Virus record (IMG/VR): IMGVR_UViG_2617270973_000012
Span: 1 to 7,415 of that record
Length of the DNA stretch: 7,415 nt
Reading direction: 5' to 3' (one strand)
Source of the DNA: a virus
Taxonomy: Duplodnaviria; Heunggongvirae; Uroviricota; Caudoviricetes
This document shows, piece by piece, positions 1 through 7,415 of the stretch; positions within the stretch are counted from its first letter, which is position 1, and each line of letters opens with the position of its first letter. The notes below the pieces were generated by a model. That model was not told the DNA's origin, did not search any database, and was given only the letters and a program-made list of their open reading frames with translations. A program made the position numbers and the translations under genes.

Positions 1-708
1 ATGTGGGTCAATAAGTATATTGACGATTGCACTGATGAGGATTTAAACGATCGTGACTTTATTGCATCAGTTGTTGACCGGGCTATTTTTCATTTCGCGA
101 TTAATAGTATATGTAATCTTGGGGATAATAAAGATGCAATGCCCATTGAACAATGTACTTTTGATGTAGAAACTAAGAATGACCTTCCCTCCACGGTTCA
201 GCTATTTTATGAGGAATCTAAGGATAATGAACCTTTAGCGAATATACATTTTCAAGCAATAGGTTCTGGTTTTTTAACGTTTGTTAATGCCTGCCAGGAA
301 CATGATGACAACAGCTTAAAATTATTTGCTTCGCTGTTAATTTCACTTTCATATTCTAGTGCCTACGCAGATTTATCAGAAACAGTGTATATTAATGAAA
401 ATAATGAGAGCTACCTGAAAGCTCAGTTTGAAAAATTATCTCAACGTGATATGAAGAAGTACCTGGGAGAGATGAAGCGTCTGGCTGATGGGGGAGAAAT
501 GAATTTTGATGGCTATCTGGATAAGATGTCACATCTGGTGAATGAAGGAACGCTCGATCCTGATATTTTAAGCAAAATGCGAGATGCTGCACCACAATTA
601 ATTAGCTTCGCGAAGTCGTTTGACCCAACCTCAAAGGAAGAGATTAAAATACTTACAGACACTTCTAAATTAATTTATGATTTGTTCGGGGTTAAATCGG
701 AGAAATAA
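1..708 (+). CDS. Hypothetical protein, 235 aa, AT-rich; possibly the 3' part of a longer gene cut by the window edge
   Basis: Open frame from ATG at position 1 to TAA at 706-708, followed by a hairpin plus T-run terminator. No motif I recognise. Composition is clearly AT-rich compared with the prophage core. Because the ORF begins exactly at the window edge, the true start may lie upstream. Confidence 0.55.
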   Translation: MWVNKYIDDCTDEDLNDRDFIASVVDRAIFHFAINSICNLGDNKDAMPIEQCTFDVETKNDLPSTVQLFYEESKDNEPLANIHFQAIGSGFLTFVNACQEHDDNSLKLFASLLISLSYSSAYADLSETVYINENNESYLKAQFEKLSQRDMKKYLGEMKRLADGGEMNFDGYLDKMSHLVNEGTLDPDILSKMRDAAPQLISFAKSFDPTSKEEIKILTDTSKLIYDLFGVKSEK

Positions 709-749
709 TATGTGAAGTTCTTCGATAGTATGGAAGGCATTATATAAAA

Positions 750-778
750 GGACCCAATATTTATTGGGTTCTTTTTTC
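750..778 (+). terminator. Rho-independent terminator after the 1-708 ORF
   Basis: GGACCCAATA / TATTGGGTTC imperfect inverted repeat (one mismatch or G-U pair) followed directly by TTTTTT (772-777), about 40 nt after the stop codon. Confidence 0.7.
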
Positions 779-1294
779 TCTATCAATGCTATTAGCAGGG
801 AGATATATCACCAGAGTTTAATGTGTGATTTTTTATTTATCGTCGAACCTGGATTGTTTATCATTGGCCTTAACAAAGTTAACGGCTAATAAGATTATTT
901 CCATCACTTCGTGAGAGCTTCATGCCTTGAGAGGATCTCAATTTTCTTTTGCAATGAGACAGGCGCTTCCTGTTGTTATGGTATAGTACCCCGCTATTGA
1001 GCCTCCTGAACAGTGATGCTGAATAACATAACCCCATGATATATCGATAAAATAATCTCTACATTTGAAAATGCACGGTAATTCTGAAATGCAAAAAATC
1101 AACCAAACCAGCGCAATGCCTGAAAAAACTGACGTTCACTGGAGTGGTCGGTTTAGCGTTGCACCAATGCTCGATAGGATGTATCGTTTTTGAAAAACAA
1201 TTGGTTATGTGTTTTGTGGGAGCCTATTGGGAACCTATCAAAAGATTTTTTGTCATAGCAGTGTGAGATGCAAAACACTGTGATGGTCGCTTTG

Positions 1295-1322
1295 TTGACA
1301 TCGCAACTTCTGCAGGTATAAT
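1295..1322 (+). promoter_or_regulatory. Near-consensus sigma70 promoter for the DUF4065/membrane-protein operon
   Basis: TTGACA at 1295-1300, a 16-nt spacer, then TATAAT at 1317-1322; both hexamers match consensus exactly. Predicted transcription start near 1329-1330, giving a roughly 150-nt leader before the ATG at 1480. Confidence 0.7.
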
Positions 1323-1479
1323 TCGCCACCAATTTGTAACCTGTGTATATGTACAGTTCTTTGCTGGTTATAAACACAGTGAATTGCTCTTGCAATCTTC
1401 CAAAATTTTTTTGTTCGTGCTAGGTTGAGATAACAGTGATGATACTGTTTGCACATTCAGTGTAATGAGGAGGGTGGTT

Positions 1480-1953
1480 ATGTACAGCCCGGTACAAATA
1501 GCCAATAAATTCATAACGTTGGGAAACCAACATCATAATCCTCTGACCCACATGCAACTGCAGAAGCTTACTTATATTGCACATGGTTACTATTTAGCAT
1601 TAACAGGTAAGCCTTTGCTCAATGAATGTGTCTCCGCGTGGAAGTACGGTCCAGTTATTCCTGGAATGTACGATGCTTTCAAAGATTATGGGAATAAACC
1701 TGTTACGAATGTAGCAGTAGCTCCTTTTGGTGGCATTGTTACTATGGATCCACAAGCAGAGAGCATTATAGGGGCTGTTTATAAATTTTACGGCTCGAAA
1801 AATGGAATTGAGTTATCAACTCTAACTCATATGCCTGGTACGCCTTGGTCACAAGCTTATAATGGTATTGGCTCGTCAATCATCTCAAATGATGCGATCA
1901 AGGCTTATTATCATGATTTATTGAATAACCGACAGCAATGTCAGGGCCTCTGA
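1480..1953 (+). CDS. Panacea-domain (DUF4065 / COG3600 GepA / SocA-like) protein, putative PanA-type antitoxin, 157 aa
   Basis: The segment LQKLTYIAHGYYLALTGKPLLNECVSAWKYGPVIPGMYDAF resembles the conserved core of DUF4065/Panacea proteins as I recall it. AGGAGG at 1468-1473 lies 6 nt upstream of ATG 1480. The ORF-track start at 1465 is an in-frame ATG sitting inside this ribosome-binding site, so I moved the start to 1480. Stop is TGA at 1951-1953. Confidence 0.6.
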   Translation: MYSPVQIANKFITLGNQHHNPLTHMQLQKLTYIAHGYYLALTGKPLLNECVSAWKYGPVIPGMYDAFKDYGNKPVTNVAVAPFGGIVTMDPQAESIIGAVYKFYGSKNGIELSTLTHMPGTPWSQAYNGIGSSIISNDAIKAYYHDLLNNRQQCQGL

Positions 1954-1975
1954 AAAAGTAATATTCAGGGATGAC

Positions 1976-2524
1976 ATGTCTCACAATTCAGATATCTATA
2001 AACTTATCGGAGCGGCCGCAGGTGTTGAAAATGGTCGCTCTGAAGCATCCTTAAACTCTACTGACAGTCAAGAACAGATTTTTAAATCTGCATTTGAGCC
2101 GTCTAATCATGAGAGCGACGATGATTCTTCTTCAGAAAATAAAGCTATTCTGGAGGCAGAAGAGTTTGGTTCTAATACTGGTGCATTGCATGAGTTTATG
2201 CAGCAGAACAGAATGGACAGTCTTCAAGCTCAGCTTGATATGCTCAAATCACAAGTACGGGATAAGATAGCTGACGCAACTGGTAAAGAAATAGACAATG
2301 AGCTTCGGACAAAAATGGCCTCATTCACGGTTTGGTTTATGTCGTGTTGGTGCTTATTCGTTGTCGCAATGTTTACATCGTTTCTTATTGCACATGAAGG
2401 AAAGCCTCCAGTTGAAGCGATCGTTGCATTACTAGGTACAAGTACAATTAGTATTGTTGGTTTGGTTGGTTTCGTTGTTAGTGGATTGTTCAAATCAAGA
2501 AAAGATAGTGATAAAGAAAAATAA
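1976..2524 (+). CDS. Membrane protein, 182 aa: acidic N-terminal region, coiled-coil-like middle, two C-terminal TM helices; candidate toxin/effector partner of the upstream gene
   Basis: Starts 22 nt after the upstream stop, with a weak GGGA ribosome-binding site. The N-terminus is rich in D/E/S (ESDDDSSSENKAILEAEEF). Two hydrophobic stretches, FTVWFMSCWCLFVVAMFTSFLIA and AIVALLGTSTISIVGLVGFVVSGLF, are followed by a basic tail KSRKDSDKEK. No family recognised. Confidence 0.6.
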   Translation: MSHNSDIYKLIGAAAGVENGRSEASLNSTDSQEQIFKSAFEPSNHESDDDSSSENKAILEAEEFGSNTGALHEFMQQNRMDSLQAQLDMLKSQVRDKIADATGKEIDNELRTKMASFTVWFMSCWCLFVVAMFTSFLIAHEGKPPVEAIVALLGTSTISIVGLVGFVVSGLFKSRKDSDKEK

Positions 2525-2544
2525 CCCGTACATATACGGGTTAT
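2521..2544. terminator. Bidirectional rho-independent terminator between convergent transcription units
   Basis: Perfect 10-bp inverted repeat ATAACCCGTA (2521-2530) / TACGGGTTAT (2535-2544) with loop CATA. An A-run lies upstream (a U-tract for minus-strand transcripts) and a T-rich stretch downstream. It overlaps the TAA stop of the plus-strand gene and sits 14 nt from the stop of the minus-strand PrtN-like gene. Confidence 0.75.
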
Positions 2545-2557
2545 CCATAGTTTTAGT

Positions 2558-2830
2558 TTAGTTATATTTTTGTTTTTCCGTTCTGACTTTTTCCCACTCA
2601 GCTCGCCCTTCTTCCCGTCTTTTGTCAATATATTCCGCAAGATCCTGAATGTTGATGCAGCGTTTTGCTTTTTGTGATGTACCGATGCGATATGTAGGTA
2701 CAGGCAACTTACAAGCGTTTGCTTTTGCTTCTGCTGTGGCTGGACTCATACCAAAGTATTTTTGACTAACTGCTGAGAGTTCAATGTTTGGGGTATTGAA
2801 TTCAGCCATCAGTAAAAACAAGGTGTTCAT
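2558..2830 (-). CDS. PrtN-family / excisionase-like small DNA-binding protein, 90 aa
   Basis: Small basic protein at the distal end of the leftward operon. Sequence MNTLFLLMAEFNTPNIELSAVSQKYFGMSPATAEAKANACKLPVPTYRIG resembles the pyocin-activator PrtN family, often annotated as phage excisionase. I moved the start from the ORF-track GTG at 2857 to ATG at 2828-2830, which has GGAG 6 nt upstream. Confidence 0.55.
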   Translation of the reverse strand: MNTLFLLMAEFNTPNIELSAVSQKYFGMSPATAEAKANACKLPVPTYRIGTSQKAKRCINIQDLAEYIDKRREEGRAEWEKVRTEKQKYN

Positions 2831-2866
2831 AATTTTCTCCATCAAAACCGGCTGCACCCGGGAAAA

Positions 2867-3439
2867 TCATAATTCTGTGCTGGTGGCAGGAATTAGTTTC
2901 TGCCAGATAGCGGAAACATATTTTGCCTGATGACGGGCATCAGCCAGGGCGTTGTGCCGTTCTCCATCGAAAGGCATGTCCATTTTTGGGTCGAATCCGA
3001 TGGAACGCCCAAGCGTAACGATCGTGCGTACATCGTGGTCATTCCAGTACGCCCACGGGCAGATTTGTCCTGCTCGCTCGTAAGCTCCACGTAAAATTAC
3101 GTTGTCGAAGGTGGCCCCGTTACCCCAGACTTTTAAATATTTTGTATTGTCTGCATGCTGATTAATGAAATGGCTCAGTTCAGAGAGTGCATCGCTGATC
3201 GACAAAGTATCATCAATACAGATTGCAGCTCGTGCTTCAGAGCTCTGTTTCAACCACCACAGGATGGTATCGCCGTCAGGTGTAGCTCCTTGCCCCATAG
3301 CACTTTCCAGGCTAACAACCGTATAGAATTCTTGTCCGATGTCTCCGGTTTCTGGAGTGAAGAACACCGCGCCAATGGAAACGATCGGTGCATCCTTATT
3401 TTTCCCCATCGTCTCAAGGTCGATCATTAAGTTATTCAT
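2867..3439 (-). CDS. DnaQ-like DEDDh 3'-5' exonuclease, phage-type, 190 aa
   Basis: Exo I motif IDLETMG, Exo II WGNGATFDNVIL and Exo III HNALADA (H-x4-D) are all present. GGAGG ribosome-binding site. The start ATG overlaps the stop of the upstream gene (TAATG). Confidence 0.7.
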   Translation of the reverse strand: MNNLMIDLETMGKNKDAPIVSIGAVFFTPETGDIGQEFYTVVSLESAMGQGATPDGDTILWWLKQSSEARAAICIDDTLSISDALSELSHFINQHADNTKYLKVWGNGATFDNVILRGAYERAGQICPWAYWNDHDVRTIVTLGRSIGFDPKMDMPFDGERHNALADARHQAKYVSAIWQKLIPATSTEL

Positions 3440-4263
3440 TACTTCACCTCCTGCGGCGGTTCCGGTAGCGGCATCCAGTGGGTTACTTTCAATGCCGGTT
3501 CTTCCCCATCGTCAGTAACTGCCCACCATTTGTTTCTCGAACAATCGTAATATCCTTCGAAGGTATCGCACTCAGTCCAGCCGTAAGACTTACCCCAACA
3601 CCAAACATATTGTTTATCGTTCGGCATTCGCTCACTACAGCTTATCCAACTATCCGGAGTTACCGGATAGTTGCGCATTGCGACCTTTAATGCCTCATAG
3701 AAGCAACCTTTCAGATTGTTGAACTGACGCCCATTAAGAGGACCGTGTTCAGTAAGCATGTTGCGTAATTTCCATGCCGCGTCGTTTACTTCGTTGGATG
3801 ACAGGGGAGGCAACTTGTAAGTTTGGCTTACAGGTTCGGCACCATGAAGCATGGCGCCGCTCCGCTCTATGCCATCCAGCGCGATTCGCAGTGCCTGAAT
3901 TGTGGTAGAGCTATCGTTTGGGGCTATTCCATATCGCTCGAATACAGCTAAATGGTTGCGCATAATCTCAGGCGTAAGCTCTTTGTAAGCATAAGCAAGA
4001 GGCTCTGATGCATTATCCGGCACAACCGACGCAGGCGCGGCAGCATAAACAGGAATAACGTCCGCTTGCTCTTTATTGCTTTCATCCGTTAAAGCCCAGA
4101 ATAATTTCCCGGCCGGATGTTTGAAAATATAAGCAACTGGATCTGCTTCCAGCGATGCCAGTGCAATTTCATAAGCACGGCGCTCAATATTGTCTCGAAC
4201 GTCCAAGCTGCCTATGCGCTCTTTGATTTCTTTAATCAGTTCTTTGTCGGTAAAATTGGTCAT
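3439..4263 (-). CDS. Phage protein with C-terminal DUF551-like domain, 274 aa
   Basis: The C-terminus is Trp/Cys-rich and ends VTHWMPLPEPP, typical of DUF551 phage proteins as I recall them. AAGGAG ribosome-binding site 6 nt upstream of ATG 4261-4263. N-terminal half not recognised. Confidence 0.5.
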   Translation of the reverse strand: MTNFTDKELIKEIKERIGSLDVRDNIERRAYEIALASLEADPVAYIFKHPAGKLFWALTDESNKEQADVIPVYAAAPASVVPDNASEPLAYAYKELTPEIMRNHLAVFERYGIAPNDSSTTIQALRIALDGIERSGAMLHGAEPVSQTYKLPPLSSNEVNDAAWKLRNMLTEHGPLNGRQFNNLKGCFYEALKVAMRNYPVTPDSWISCSERMPNDKQYVWCWGKSYGWTECDTFEGYYDCSRNKWWAVTDDGEEPALKVTHWMPLPEPPQEVK

Positions 4264-4273
4264 GTGTTACTCC

Positions 4274-4537
4274 TTAACCCGCAGTGCTTTCAACTGACGA
4301 GGGGAACAAAATCTTTTCATCAAATCCGGCATTCATATCATGGACAGCAACACACCAATCCATTGACGAACGATTATCAAGAGCCTCCATGATTTCATCC
4401 ATGCGGCGTAGGTCATACAGGTAAATATTTTTATCGCCAATGGTGTAAAAACCAATTTTTTTCGGTGATGGACAGCGATCAATAACGTCCTGTAATTCGT
4501 TCAACCATGCCTGTTCTTTTTTTGTCAAAGTTGCCAT
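4274..4537 (-). CDS. Hypothetical phage early protein, 87 aa
   Basis: ATG at 4535-4537 is preceded by AAGGA. The ORF-track extension to 4627 would overlap the upstream gene and has no ribosome-binding site. Stop TAA at 4274-4276. Confidence 0.5.
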   Translation of the reverse strand: MATLTKKEQAWLNELQDVIDRCPSPKKIGFYTIGDKNIYLYDLRRMDEIMEALDNRSSMDWCVAVHDMNAGFDEKILFPSSVESTAG

Positions 4538-4538
4538 A

Positions 4539-4757
4539 TCAGTTTTCCTTATACGGATTAATTTTATTGTGCAGTGTGTTGAACGACGCCCATACCACGT
4601 CGTTATACAATTCAATAACTGGCTCAATTATTTTCCCGATTGCCCAGACAAAAATTAGCGGGGATATCGGTATCATCAACACGATAAACAGAATGAGAAA
4701 CAGGAATTCTGTCGTTCTACTCTTTCGCGGATATTCTTTTCTGAATAATGTCGGCAC
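4539..4757 (-). CDS. Small single-TM membrane protein, 72 aa, GTG start
   Basis: AAGGAG lies 7 nt upstream of GTG 4755-4757. Hydrophobic helix FLFLILFIVLMIPISPLIFVWAIG. Stop-start spacing with neighbouring genes is 1-2 nt. Confidence 0.45.
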   Translation of the reverse strand: MPTLFRKEYPRKSRTTEFLFLILFIVLMIPISPLIFVWAIGKIIEPVIELYNDVVWASFNTLHNKINPYKEN

Positions 4758-4758
4758 A

Positions 4759-5091
4759 TCACTCTCCTTTGATGCGAATGCCAGCGACGCGTAGTGCGTG
4801 TTCTAAGTCAATCAGGCAAAGCCAACTGCCATTTTCTTTAGGTATCATGACATGTCGCTTATCAGCATTTATTGGGTGCCCATATCGAAGGTCGTAGCGA
4901 GTCGGTAATTGAACTTCCCTCGCTTCCAGTTCTGTAATGCGTTTGTTTTTAGCTTCTAGTTCATCCAGCAGCGCCAGCACAACCTGCGGTGTGACTTTCA
5001 TACGAAATGCCAGCAATTTTTGTGGTGTGGCTACTATTTTTATTGCTTCTGCCGCCTCACGCAGTGCCTGATAGTTAATTTTGGTTGTCAT
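4759..5091 (-). CDS. Hypothetical phage early protein, 110 aa, coiled-coil segment
   Basis: ATG 5089-5091 overlaps the upstream stop (ATGA). GAGGTGG ribosome-binding site. Heptad-like segment LLDELEAKNKRITELEAREVQL. Family not securely recognised. Confidence 0.5.
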   Translation of the reverse strand: MTTKINYQALREAAEAIKIVATPQKLLAFRMKVTPQVVLALLDELEAKNKRITELEAREVQLPTRYDLRYGHPINADKRHVMIPKENGSWLCLIDLEHALRVAGIRIKGE

Positions 5092-5966
5092 GCCACCACC
5101 TCTTCGAATTTCAACTCCAATTGATCACCCCAGATTTCACATGACTCTGAACACGAGCCGGTATCGAATCGCCTGGCTTGCACCATCGCCTGATACAAAT
5201 TTCTGTAGTCGCTGTCGGCATACATTCTGGCAATCCCGTCAAGACTCAGATGACCACGGTACATAACGTCTTTATCTGTCTTTCGGTGACCATCCCGGAC
5301 GTGTTTACCTGTAACCAGCTCATTAAAAACTCTCATCAGACCAGGTTCGTCTTTACATGCAAGCCCCAGCTTTTGCGTGGACTTTTTGATGCAGAAAACA
5401 CAGTTCCCGAGGTGCTCCGGGATTTGCAAATCAAAAGGTTGTTTATGCCACCACCGGATAACATCCGACTTATCAAAATCAGATAGCTCGGCAAGATACC
5501 GGACGCCTGATTTCGGTTTCAGCCTACGAGGTTCGTCTGCACGAATACCCAGCCATGTGATGTAATTCCCTCGTCCGAAATGGTCATCGCAGTATTTTGT
5601 GAAGGGGGTGAGTTTTAATCTGTCAGTGCAGAACGCGCCGCCGATGTATGGCGTGCCATATTTTTTTACCATGTCCATAAACGGTTTAAGCACCGGCATT
5701 CGCGTCTGAATATCCTTTGGTTCCCATTCCGTATAACCATTTGGCTGCCCAAGCTCTGGATTTATATCGACCTGCAACACAGTTAGCGGTATGCCCCAGA
5801 ACTTCACAACCTCCCGAATAAAGCGGTATGTCAGCGGATGTTCGCAACCGGTATCCATAAAGATGTAGCAGACGTTATTACCAGCCTTTCTTTGTTCTTC
5901 CATCAGGTGAACAAGATATGCAGATGTTCTCCCGCCAGAAAAACTAACTACATGAGTTATGCACAT
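5088..5966 (-). CDS. PAPS-reductase-family (PF01507-like) PP-loop protein, 292 aa
   Basis: PP-loop-like SFSGGRTS near the N-terminus. The segment IFMDTGCEHPLTYRFIREV parallels the CysH-family motif (TDTG...ETYRFI). Common in lambdoid prophage early regions. Confidence 0.7.
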   Translation of the reverse strand: MCITHVVSFSGGRTSAYLVHLMEEQRKAGNNVCYIFMDTGCEHPLTYRFIREVVKFWGIPLTVLQVDINPELGQPNGYTEWEPKDIQTRMPVLKPFMDMVKKYGTPYIGGAFCTDRLKLTPFTKYCDDHFGRGNYITWLGIRADEPRRLKPKSGVRYLAELSDFDKSDVIRWWHKQPFDLQIPEHLGNCVFCIKKSTQKLGLACKDEPGLMRVFNELVTGKHVRDGHRKTDKDVMYRGHLSLDGIARMYADSDYRNLYQAMVQARRFDTGSCSESCEIWGDQLELKFEEVVA

Positions 5967-6493
5967 TTGCGTAATTCCGATAACTCGTTGAAGCGTGCCA
6001 TAAACATCCCGTAGGCATGGCCCGGTGCCAGTGGAATCACGTTGAACATCTCTGTTGCCGGGATGCCTTCTAGTACAGGCCAGAAAGAGCCATCATCAAG
6101 CCCGAGATCGCGGCGTTCGGTTGCCAGCATGATGAGATCGGCATATTTCACGGGTGTACTCATAACCGGGGGTAACCCGTATTTCTCACGGATTACGGCG
6201 TCTATTTTTTCTTCCATCCGTTTATAGTCAGGAAGAAGGCGTTTCAGTGGAGCGGGAATATCCTGGCAATACGCTTCTGTTGCATCATGCATTAACGCTT
6301 CAAAAGCAAATTCCTGCGGCACCAGCTGGCTGCAAAGCACCGCATGCTGGGCGACACTGTAGAAGTGTGAAAGATGTCCTGCAAAGCGACAGATATTTGA
6401 AAGGGAAACCGCGATATCGTTAATAACGATGTCGTCTTTATTTATCTTGTCATAATAAAAATGCTTCCCGGAAAAAGTTTTAATAAATGACAT
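5957..6493 (-). CDS. yfdR: HD-domain phosphohydrolase (YfbR/YfdR-like 5'-deoxynucleotidase family), 178 aa
   Basis: His...His-Asp signature (SVAQHAV ... LMHDATEAY). Length and position next to a DUF2303 gene match CPS-53 yfdR as I recall it. I moved the start from the ORF-track GTG at 6520 to ATG 6491-6493, which has GGAG 6 nt upstream. Confidence 0.6.
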   Translation of the reverse strand: MSFIKTFSGKHFYYDKINKDDIVINDIAVSLSNICRFAGHLSHFYSVAQHAVLCSQLVPQEFAFEALMHDATEAYCQDIPAPLKRLLPDYKRMEEKIDAVIREKYGLPPVMSTPVKYADLIMLATERRDLGLDDGSFWPVLEGIPATEMFNVIPLAPGHAYGMFMARFNELSELRKCA

Positions 6494-6586
6494 TTTGTTC
6501 TCCACGTATATGCGCTGCACCGCGCTGAATTCTGGTAAAAGGAAGCCCTCACCATCCGGCGATTATTGAGTAAATTATGTTTCCAT

Positions 6587-6608
6587 AAATGCCCCCGCAG
6601 GGGCATTT
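6587..6608. other. Perfect 9-bp-stem hairpin in the intergenic region between the DUF2303 and HD genes
   Basis: AAATGCCCC (6587-6595), loop CGCA, GGGGCATTT (6600-6608). No clean U-tract on either strand, so a terminator role is uncertain. Confidence 0.4.
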
Positions 6609-6620
6609 GCAGTAATGAAA

Positions 6621-7415
6621 TCAGGCGGTGAAAGTACCAATAAAGGTTTCTACTTTGCTGTCTTTAAATTTCTCAACAAGCAGATCACGAAATTCGTTAG
6701 CCATTTCTTCCTGCACCGCTTCCAGCTGAATAATGCGCAGAACCAGTACAGGACGATCGCCAGTGATAATGCTGAGGCGTAATTTAAACGGACGTTCTTT
6801 CAGGCCTTCAAACGGAACGCATTTAAATTCAAATGCCACTGGCATAATGTCTTTGGTCTTCGCTTCGACAGACTCCATCAGAGAGCGTTTGCCGCTGAAG
6901 TCATTGTCTTCAAAATCAGCGGTCTGGTTCGCTTCAATTGTGATTTTACGGACCGCCGCAGCCGCTTTGGTTGCCTGAATGGCGTCACCATTAGCATCAA
7001 AGCCCACAAGGTAGTCGGCCCAGTCTTCAATCCATTCTGCCAGTGACTTCTGGGAGTTACGCTCGCCATTAACAGACAACAGAGCAGAAAACGGTGCTGT
7101 CTTTTTCAGTTTGAGGGTGGCGGTGTTATCTGCGTGACCTGGTTCATCAATAGTCCCCAGGTTAAGCACACTGACGGCTCGCATATTATCGGCATCGATA
7201 AAGCAGCGGGTGCCTTCATCTGCAAGATCTTTAGAATAACGGGTAAAGTCATCGATGCTGGCAGTGGAAAGCGCACCACGGAAACGGAAGCGATTTAAAT
7301 TAAATTTTTCCAGATCATGAATGCGGAAATTCTCAGGCAATGCCACAGCATCGGCACCAATCTTACTAATAATTTCATTAACACCCTGAGCAGAAATAAG
7401 GGCATGGATTTGATT
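6621..7415 (-). CDS. yfdQ: DUF2303-family protein (YfdQ-like), 5' end beyond the window
   Basis: I translated the minus-strand frame beyond the ORF-track GTG at 7346 and it stays open to the window edge (…[30 protein letters not shown]…). The resulting length of at least 264 aa is consistent with the roughly 274-aa YfdQ family. Stop at 6621. Confidence 0.55.

Follow-up and report, generated by a model that had tools for sequence, protein, structure and literature searches.

The two-gene unit at positions 1295 to 2544 of the window (the whole 7,415-nt stretch of DNA that was analyzed) can be assigned with high confidence to the E. coli PanAT system, both in its identity and in its mode of action as a protein-protein (type II-like) toxin-antitoxin pair. 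The pair, the toxicity of PanT, its neutralization, and its membrane-pore mechanism were already published in 2022 and are therefore not new. The fresh observation on this known pair is an apparent switch-on by DNA damage, as suggested by candidate LexA boxes read in the leader of the operon. The analysis thus has little weight as a discovery and offers three small refinements, i.e., the status of the pair as phage cargo, the defense slots of its relatives, and the LexA boxes.

The panA-panT operon and its published counterpart

The operon and the features around it are listed below.

1071 to 1175, plus strand: displaced 5′ dusA remnant, marking the left (attL-side) boundary of a prophage integrated at dusA
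1295 to 2544, plus strand: two-gene panA-panT operon, a compact unit with its own promoter and terminator
1295 to 1322, plus strand: sigma-70 promoter (−35 TTGACA at 1295 to 1300, 16-nt spacer, −10 TATAAT at 1317 to 1322)
1339 to 1358, no strand assigned: candidate LexA box 1, ACCTGTGTATATGTACAGTT, with a perfect CTGT-N8-ACAG core at 1341 to 1356
1362 to 1381, no strand assigned: candidate LexA box 2, TGCTGGTTATAAACACAGTG, 19.5 bits, second-best score of the window, 3 nt from box 1 (tandem)
1443 to 1462, no strand assigned: candidate LexA box 3, TACTGTTTGCACATTCAGTG, 16.8 bits, third-best score of the window, just 5′ of the ribosome-binding site
1467 to 1474, plus strand: ribosome-binding site GAGGAGGG, read from the sequence, 5 nt before the panA ATG at 1480
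1480 to 1953, plus strand: panA, stand-alone Panacea-domain antitoxin of 157 aa, whose start agrees with RefSeq
1954 to 1975: panA-panT intergenic gap, 22 nt
1976 to 2524, plus strand: panT, toxin of cluster T3, 182 aa, full-length match to phrog_13343
2521 to 2544, no strand assigned: bidirectional intrinsic-terminator hairpin with a 10- to 12-bp stem and a 4-nt loop, called on both strands
2558 to 2830, minus strand: neighboring excisionase-like gene of the PrtN/TorI family (PF11112, 82 bits; phrog_1300 excisionase, E=7.7e-40)

The first-pass annotation, which was made from the letters alone, had described a self-contained unit with a consensus sigma70 promoter, a strong ribosome-binding site, a 22-nt gap, and a terminator, and all four elements were recovered. 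The promoter agrees with the consensus at 12/12 positions and is the sole perfect match between 1000 and 3000, where four other promoter-like sites reach 9/12; we infer a transcription start near 1329. It is identical in 11 of the 14 fetched E. coli or phage copies, these 11 being the copies matched by a 16-nt probe spanning the −35 element, while L003, L008, and L010 gave no match to this probe and were left out of the comparison. The Enterobacter orthologue shares the TTGAC...TATAATTCG frame. At the other end of the operon, the terminator hairpin overlaps the panT stop codon and is common to the convergent xis-like gene. No known RNA family was found by an Rfam scan of the whole window, and folding of the leader of about 150 nt gave z = −0.09, so that nothing points to a structured regulatory RNA. 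Purifying selection acts on both genes (dN/dS of 0.075 for panA and 0.167 for panT), which indicates that they are real and maintained. Diversifying selection on the toxin had been suspected from its many alleles compared to an almost invariant antitoxin, but a dN/dS of 0.17 is purifying, with selection on panT relaxed only about twofold relative to panA.

The product of the first gene had been proposed to carry a Panacea/DUF4065 domain, and the profile search suggested at the time bears this out: PF13274 matches PanA with E=5.9e-18 and 66.3 bits (cutoff, 25.7) over profile positions 1 to 112 of 113. PanA carries no extra N-terminal or DNA-binding domain. The second product had been presented as a novel two-TM membrane protein. 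Two C-terminal hydrophobic segments, centered at about residues 123 to 131 and 154 to 163, and an AlphaFold2 model with helices at 53 to 139 and 146 to 179 support the two TM helices, the model being essentially one long helix plus a hairpin, of low confidence overall (pLDDT 60.7). The novelty was lost, as PanT is 96% identical (175/182 residues) to WP_000019185.1, taken from NZ_CP129263.1, an identity through which it belongs to cluster T3. From the N terminus, PanT comprises an acidic, partly disordered region (22 D/E versus 10 K/R in residues 1 to 112), a long helix, a juxtamembrane motif, TM1, a short loop, TM2 (ALLGTSTISIVGLVGFVVSGLFK), and a basic C-terminal tail. In the family alignment, TM2 is nearly invariant and the juxtamembrane motif is conserved (G103, IDN at 106 to 108, and LR at 110 to 111). 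Pfam matches of PanT to DUF2207_C, 7tm_6, DUF2975, and SlyX fell far below their cutoffs and were treated as noise of TM or coiled-coil composition. PDB sequence searches with PanA and PanT returned nothing meaningful (best E = 0.3 and 0.04; WD-40 protein and lamin).

Kurata et al. (2022, PNAS, PMC8832971) validated in E. coli the PanAT pair of STEC O31 (WP_000287252.1 and WP_000019185.1). This is the same system as that of the window, with an antitoxin identical at 157/157 residues, the same gene order, the same 22-nt spacer, and the same dusA junction (in STEC1588); the table of that study likewise lists 22-nt spacing, A|T order, and a “noNTD” PanA for the E. coli pair. The toxin alleles differ by seven residues, the window carrying WP_000019187.1 (I35A, K37E, S47R, V130A, A131G, T134V, and S178G). 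Three of these substitutions lie in TM1 and none falls on a family-invariant column. Nine E. coli genome annotations carry other toxin alleles, and WP_000019185.1 itself was found in STEC1588. In the published experiments, E. coli PanT was toxic and was neutralized by its cognate PanA, it inhibited all three labeling channels indiscriminately, and it caused strong depolarization and SYTOX Green uptake, read by the authors as large-pore formation (PMC8832971). Because the growth and membrane-potential experiment that the first-pass annotation had proposed for toxin and antitoxin had already been published, the PanAT reading is firmer than that annotation could know. Its suggestion that the pairing may be undescribed did not hold, since the same study lists toxin cluster T3 from dozens of taxa, always behind a stand-alone PanA (A|T throughout), and the record of phage PhiR47_1, whose DNA is 100% identical, already annotates both genes as PanA/PanT.

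Prophage setting and relatives of the pair

The operon is the first transcription unit within a dusA-integrated lambdoid prophage. At the position equivalent to the dusA remnant, RefSeq annotates in five genomes a [quoted passage not shown] The PhiR47_1 record begins at about window position 1173, and its positions 123 to 1372 correspond to 1295 to 2544 of the window, so that panA and panT are genes 1 and 2 of this phage, with the integrase at the opposite end of its genome. Two Stx2 phages also carry the operon, at 96.6% identity. The PanAT locus of STEC O31 is flagged “NotPhage” in the table of Kurata et al. (PMC8832971), whereas the window copy shows that the module is carried by an active temperate phage and by Stx2-converting phages and is not a non-phage chromosomal locus. 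The AT-rich island noted earlier is real (GC of 0.36 to 0.42 over 1 to 3000 and 0.43 to 0.49 further in), and so is the excisionase-like neighbor, which is context and lies outside the operon. Together with the published pair, the PhiR47_1 identity upholds the earlier proposal of a prophage-borne operon that combines a Panacea antitoxin with a membrane-active toxin.

The two genes are tightly linked. In each of the 79 E. coli genomes that gave a match, the two genes occur together and at least 80% of the operon span is present, and a survey of homologue neighborhoods, also suggested earlier, placed a PF13274 gene directly upstream of panT in 14 of 14 loci of nine PanT homologues (33 to 66% identity). 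The constant pairing in the 79 genomes, the proven toxicity and neutralization (PMC8832971), and the location of the operon beside attachment site and excision gene would suit an addiction or stabilization function: if PanT is stable and PanA labile, loss of the prophage would lead to killing or arrest of the cell, and the element would thereby be kept at dusA. We consider this function improbable, however: postsegregational killing needs both proteins continuously, while the three predicted LexA boxes described below argue for silence in healthy lysogens, and loss of a chromosomal prophage is rare, with excision normally ending in lysis anyway.

Divergent PanA-PanT(T3) pairs were found in P2-like prophages, where they occupy the variable cargo slot that separates gpA from the portal gene. 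Their neighbors in this slot include a reverse-transcriptase gene (L018), CBASS DncV plus Cap15 (L022), and type I restriction-modification genes (L016). Rousset et al. (2022) list “DUF4065 + hypothetical” among the contents of the E. coli P2 hotspot. These slots shared with known defense genes make an anti-phage role worth probing. According to such a role, PanA would be a sensor that frees PanT, or no longer holds it in check, upon infection by a competing phage; the lysogen would then die from the PanT pores before the cycle of the invader is complete, which would shield the clonal hosts of the prophage. Ernits et al. (2023, PMC10440598) suggest a sensor function for the Panacea domain and tie toxin-antitoxin networks to defense, and the moron-like layout of the unit, with its own promoter and terminator, fits as well. 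We nonetheless hold abortive infection only as a tentative reading, with the odds somewhat against it. Association with a hotspot is suggestive only, we found no plaque or efficiency-of-plating report in the literature for the pair or its paralogues, and in the supplements of two defense-screen papers the family appears only in a hotspot-content catalogue and is absent among the tested systems. Neither protein has a meaningful match among the PADLOC-DB v2 models (none for PanT and a chance-level one for PanA, E=0.02, to a type I REase model). Moreover, in a lysogen that is not infected, LexA would repress the system to a low level, and a role in abortive infection therefore needs the infection to trigger the SOS response or to bypass LexA.

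Candidate LexA boxes in the leader

The promoter and leader were searched for the SOS-box consensus TACTGTATATATATACAGTA with its core CTGT-N8-ACAG. The three best scores of the window all fall between the −10 element and the ribosome-binding site, the next best anywhere reaching 10.5 bits, and three such sites within 130 nt occurred in 0 of 500 resampled windows. With 20.1 bits, box 1 comes near the median of known sites (20.9); it lies at about +10 to +30 from the inferred start. The core pattern occurs once in the window, versus 0.04 expected; this is the only test that is independent of the set of E. coli SOS boxes on which we built the scoring matrix. Two boxes were found at the dinI-like gene of the same phage, which served as a positive control. 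Box 3 overlaps a small palindrome, AACAGTGATGATACTGTT (1432 to 1449). The repeats AAACAC(T/A)GTGA at 1273 to 1283 and 1372 to 1382 had been considered as integrase arm sites, and the second is better explained as half of box 2.

All E. coli copies have box 1, as does the Enterobacter orthologue, and the alignment of the window leader with that of Enterobacter, the sole one made, is otherwise poorly conserved. In the orthologues of Enterobacter, Salmonella, and K. quasipneumoniae, boxes lie no more than 141 nt from panA, at differing positions. No box was found near panA in the homologues from Providencia (L016) and from a metagenome (L030), and SOS control is therefore not family-wide. At P2-type loci, the boxes lie 660 to 1,030 nt upstream with other genes in between, which leaves co-regulation uncertain. 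Taken from sequence, LexA control of panAT is probable. The leader boxes had escaped the first-pass annotation and alter the expected expression logic. Kurata et al. expressed the genes from PBAD and Ptac, with the native promoter and its LexA boxes outside the study, and neither PanAT paper (PMC8832971 and PMC10440598) mentions LexA or SOS. The boxes at the native promoter provide a concrete hypothesis for the trigger and regulation of stand-alone PanA systems, and control by the host LexA would, if true, explain how a stand-alone PanA manages without a DNA-binding autoregulatory domain.

A broader proposal, which we regard as plausible but put at somewhat below even chances, is that panAT belongs to the SOS regulon, with a consensus promoter clamped by tandem LexA boxes, so that pore toxin and antitoxin would be made only after DNA damage or infection-triggered SOS, as a damage- or infection-gated suicide or defense switch. 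[quoted passage not shown] The two systems would thus have in common a LexA-controlled membrane toxin, LexA control being predicted in the case of panAT. They differ in that the TisB antitoxin is an sRNA and that TisB, a peptide of 29 aa with a single helix, is not homologous to PanT. If true, the proposal would make panAT the protein-antitoxin counterpart of TisB/IstR-1 in prophage defense hotspots.

The same precedent bears on a possible role of PanT in SOS-induced lysis or dormancy, in which a holin- or TisB-like PanT would assist or time lysis, with PanA acting like an antiholin, or would depolarize damaged cells and render them drug tolerant. The predicted LexA control ties PanT to the signal that induces lambdoid prophages, and dinI genes are frequent neighbors of the PanAT pair. 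PanT resembles holins only in its two TM helices, its charged C-terminal tail, and the formation of large pores; no holin family was matched in Pfam, and all PHROG matches are of “unknown function.” No lysis cassette lies near the panAT operon, whose direction of transcription leads away from the early-left operon, and the long acidic N-terminal domain of PanT is unlike known holins or TisB. We therefore regard this role as unlikely.

Proposed mechanism and related systems

PanAT is a self-contained piece of cargo, placed near the attachment site at one end of a lambdoid prophage that integrates at dusA. PanT would insert into the inner membrane by its two C-terminal TM helices and form large pores, collapsing the membrane potential and halting transcription, translation, and replication together, effects shown by experiment for the 96%-identical allele. 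The stand-alone Panacea protein PanA would neutralize PanT, presumably by direct binding, and the contact may lie on the cytoplasmic region of PanT just before TM1, by analogy with the PanT:PanA model of Bartonella. PanA having no DNA-binding domain, control of transcription would fall to the host instead. The consensus promoter is followed by two adjacent putative LexA boxes, with a third near the ribosome-binding site, and because of these boxes behind the promoter the operon should be off in an undamaged lysogen and induced by SOS, concurrently with prophage induction. The benefit could lie in defense against other phages, in deciding the fate of a cell with damaged DNA, or in aid to the phage's own lytic cycle.

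The PanT(T12/D11)-PanA pair of Bartonella apis/choladocola likewise combines a stand-alone Panacea antitoxin with a toxin whose N-terminal region is charged and whose TM helices lie at the C terminus, and its PanT causes depolarization and SYTOX Green uptake, as does E. coli PanT (Kurata et al., 2022; Ernits et al., 2023, PMC10440598). An AlphaFold2 model and mutagenesis put the PanA contact of this toxin just before the TM segment (PMC10440598). Bartonella PanT belongs to a different toxin cluster from that of the window, and the interface can be transferred by analogy alone; the authors of PMC8832971 raise a possible homology between clusters T3 and T12.

The founding Panacea/DUF4065 antitoxin is SocA of the Caulobacter SocA-SocB system, which has the Panacea domain (PF13274) in common with PanA. 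SocA is a ClpXP adaptor that degrades SocB, an inhibitor of the replication clamp, and SocAB therefore differs from PanAT in both its toxin and its mode of neutralization. PanA scores 97 bits against the NCBIfam model NF047745 (SocA_antitoxin), below the equivalog cutoff of 190, and is accordingly not a SocA orthologue, the two proteins sharing only the domain.

Identity of the operon with the published E. coli PanAT pair

The first-pass annotation had read window positions 1295 to 2544 as a self-contained toxin-antitoxin or abortive-infection operon that pairs a Panacea (DUF4065)-like protein with a small two-TM membrane protein. Its promoter, ribosome-binding site, two open reading frames (ORFs), intergenic gap, and terminator were all found as described:

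1295-1322, plus strand: sigma-70 promoter, 12/12 match to the consensus
5 nt upstream of the ATG at 1480, plus strand: ribosome-binding site GAGGAGGG, read from the sequence
1480-1953, plus strand: panA, 157 aa, with a 22-nt gap to the next ORF
1976-2524, plus strand: panT, 182 aa, 22 nt downstream of panA
2521-2544: terminator hairpin with a 10-bp stem, scoring as a terminator on both strands

The fold of the leader RNA was nothing out of the ordinary (z = -0.09), and Rfam gave no RNA family match. A profile search confirmed that the first gene encodes a Panacea/DUF4065 protein (PF13274, 66.3 bits against a cutoff of 25.7), with nearly the whole profile covered. PanA as an orthologue of SocA was rejected, since it reached 97 bits against the NCBIfam equivalog cutoff of 190; the two have only the domain in common. 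PanT had no family in Pfam, NCBIfam, or PADLOC, the last of which also has no model for PanA, and matched phrog_13343 over its full length.

The panAT operon of the window is already known as a system. The Panacea domain received its name from Kurata et al. 2022 (PNAS, PMC8832971), who also validated nine PanA-PanT pairs, including PanA_Esc.col-PanT_Esc.col of Escherichia coli STEC O31, classed as "Membrane" (toxin WP_000019185.1, antitoxin WP_000287252.1). Their supplementary table gives this pair the order A|T, a 22-nt spacer, "noNTD", cluster T3, and status "TA". WP_000287252.1 is the RefSeq accession for the window PanA sequence in a genome with 100% identical operon DNA, and strain STEC1588 has WP_000019185.1 next to it, again at this dusA junction. 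By direct comparison with the published pair, PanA was identical at 157/157 residues and PanT at 175/182 (96%), the window toxin differing by seven substitutions (I35A, K37E, S47R, V130A, A131G, T134V, and S178G), none of them on a family-invariant column. PanT_Esc.col blocked growth, from which cognate PanA rescued the cells, and it stopped the incorporation of all three labels (methionine, uridine, and thymidine) together; the membrane became strongly depolarised (DiSC3(5)) and SYTOX Green entered the cells, effects that those authors read as large-pore formation (PMC8832971). With the identical antitoxin and a toxin of 96% identity, the literature thus demonstrates toxicity, neutralisation by the cognate partner, depolarisation, and permeabilisation of the membrane. 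The toxin-antitoxin reading was correct and has experimental backing, and the proposed expression of the toxin alone and with its partner had essentially been published (PMC8832971). The suggestion that the pairing might be undescribed was wrong: the same E. coli pair was validated in 2022, and the depositors of Escherichia phage PhiR47_1 had already labelled its genes "PanA antitoxin" and "PanT toxin".

Prophage setting at dusA

The window passes from E. coli chromosome into the left end of a prophage, and the following features frame the operon:

1-708: C-terminal part of a DUF2713 protein (PF10897, E=4e-166)
1071-1175: truncated 5' piece of dusA (tRNA-dihydrouridine synthase gene), directly before phage DNA
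2558-2830, minus strand: excisionase-like gene (PF11112; phrog_1300 excisionase family, E=7.7e-40)

The window holds only the 3' portion of the gene for this DUF2713 protein; in strain 1EC187 the longer gene encodes 338 aa (WP_000912595.1), and several other genomes (CFSAN018748, STEC309, SW071614, and STEC1588) have it annotated as frameshifted. RefSeq labels the dusA piece "incomplete, missing C-terminus" in five genomes, at the matching location each time, and in the window phage DNA extends from about 1173 onward; the truncated 5' end marks a dusA-integrating prophage. GC content is 0.36-0.42 over positions 1-3000 versus 0.43-0.49 deeper in the prophage. Window positions 1295-2544 correspond, at 100% identity, to coordinates 123-1372 of PhiR47_1, a 43-kb phage of host ECOR13 with lambda-like tail genes J, Lom, and Stf. 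Its integrase (41690-42787) lies at the opposite genome end from panAT, which gives the circular map order int - attP - panA - panT - xis. In this dusA-integrated temperate phage, panAT is clearly the transcription unit that comes first, with attP on one side and the excisionase-like gene on the other. The location of that gene next to attP is consistent with a role as excisionase or recombination directionality factor; its RefSeq name is "pyocin activator PrtN family".

The operon is also present in two Stx2-converting phages, 1720a-02 and phiSTEC1575-Stx2k (96.6% identity), and in 79 of 5,426 complete E. coli genomes, always on the chromosome and over at least 80% of its span. The E. coli STEC O31 row in supplementary dataset 1 of Kurata et al. 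flags the locus "NotPhage" (PMC8832971); that it is phage DNA, making up genes 1-2 of PhiR47_1, adds to the published picture. No complete E. coli genome matched the whole window (best, 86% coverage and 96.7% identity). The early-left region (2867-7415, minus strand) is mosaic, with genes for an Rv2179c-like 3'-5' exonuclease, a DUF551 protein, a PAPS-reductase-like protein (5088-5966), a YfdR-like HD 5'-deoxynucleotidase, and YfdQ. Between two of the early-left genes, a 72-aa ORF (4539-4757, minus strand) has a strongly hydrophobic central segment, FLFLILFIVLMIPISPLIFVWAIG.

Candidate LexA boxes upstream of panA

The window was scored with a position matrix built from E. coli SOS boxes, a rough tool. 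The three best scores all fell between the promoter and the panA ribosome-binding site, the next best anywhere being 10.5 bits:

1339-1358: candidate LexA box 1, 20.1 bits
1362-1381: candidate LexA box 2, 19.5 bits, 3 nt from box 1
1443-1462: candidate LexA box 3, 16.8 bits

Known SOS sites score 13.1-26.9 bits on the same matrix (median, 20.9), and the dinI-like gene of PhiR47_1, with two boxes in its promoter, provided a positive control. Three such sites within 130 nt occurred in 0/500 resampled windows. The core CTGT-N8-ACAG, found once in the window (1341-1356) versus 0.04 expected, is present in every E. coli copy, and this palindrome lies just downstream of the -10 element in both the window and the Enterobacter orthologue, the only pair of leaders aligned, which are otherwise poorly conserved. 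Enterobacter, Salmonella, and K. quasipneumoniae orthologues carry boxes of 19.9-22.7 bits at differing positions, 14-113 nt upstream of panA. At the Klebsiella and P2-type loci, strong boxes lie ahead of a dinI gene, a small same-strand ORF upstream of panA, or both. The matrix scan detected no box at the Providencia homologue and one metagenomic homologue.

These boxes suggest that LexA represses the panAT operon, in which case DNA damage would induce panAT along with the prophage. An SOS-linked lysis or dormancy factor is one candidate role. Another is an addiction module, although gating by LexA would argue against simple addiction. Kurata et al. used PBAD and Ptac promoters and never mention LexA or SOS (PMC8832971), and the PanAT papers make no mention of LexA boxes; the predicted SOS control is a modest, testable addition to the published system. 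A further motif, AAACAC(T/A)GTGA / ACAGTGATG, is repeated around the promoter (1273-1283, 1372-1382, and 1433-1441), its downstream copies overlapping boxes 2 and 3. The remaining copy, which precedes the -35 element, could represent a half-site or else an arm site for integrase or Xis.

PanT architecture, linkage to panA, and neighbouring genes

PanT has an acidic region (residues 1-112, 22 D/E versus 10 K/R), hydrophobic segments centred at about 123-131 and 154-163, and a basic tail, KSRKDSDKEK. An AlphaFold2 model built on a 27-sequence alignment, with a mean pLDDT of only 60.7 but 75-85 over the membrane hairpin, comprises a helix (3-27), a disordered stretch (28-52), a long helix running into TM1 (53-139), a short turn, and a helix containing TM2 (146-179). 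An alignment of homologues with identities as low as 33% shows a hypervariable N-terminal region, while G103, I106-D107-N108, L110-R111, W125-C126, and nearly the entire TM2 (ALLGTSTISIVGLVGFVVSGLFK) do not vary. The positive-inside rule predicts an N-in/C-in topology, and the small-residue-rich TM2 may drive oligomerisation into pores. The Bartonella PanT:PanA model and the mutants of Ernits et al. 2023 suggest, by analogy, that PanA would bind PanT at its cytoplasmic juxtamembrane region.

Purifying selection acts on both genes (dN/dS of 0.075 for panA and 0.167 for panT). Of the 15 annotated E. coli/phage copies examined, 12 encode the same PanA protein even though their DNA carries 7-9 synonymous differences; PanT occurs as several alleles across the set. 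W120C and C124W (window 2333-2335 and 2345-2347) always appear together among E. coli alleles, a Trp/Cys swap one helical turn apart in TM1 that accompanies V130A, A131V, and T134V and looks like a compensatory change on one helix face.

The first-pass annotation had let its reading stand or fall with the co-occurrence of the two genes, and this held. In a survey of nine PanT homologues (33-66% identity) from Enterobacter, Klebsiella, Salmonella, Providencia, Pantoea, and metagenomes, a PF13274 gene lay immediately upstream of the PanT homologue gene in 14/14 loci. The linkage is obligate, in agreement with the list of T3, the toxin cluster containing PanT, which spans Bacteroidetes, Proteobacteria, and Deinococcus (PMC8832971). 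More distant pairs are found between gpA and the portal gene of P2-like prophages, in the variable slot, where their neighbours include the following:

L018 3964-5724: 586-aa reverse-transcriptase gene
L022 4051-5962: CBASS DncV-like and Cap15 operon
L016 (Providencia) 3866-6495: type I R-M subunit genes

In Rousset et al. 2022, "DUF4065 + hypothetical" appears in the catalogue of P2-hotspot contents; the tested-sequence files of that study lack the PanAT family signature, and we found no plaquing data for the pair in the literature. panAT may thus plausibly serve in defence, and abortive-infection defence stands beside addiction and SOS-linked lysis or dormancy as a candidate role. The association of PanAT with defence hotspots is itself a modest, testable addition. 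Separately, dinI genes were often seen just upstream of panA (L018, L019, L027, and L028).
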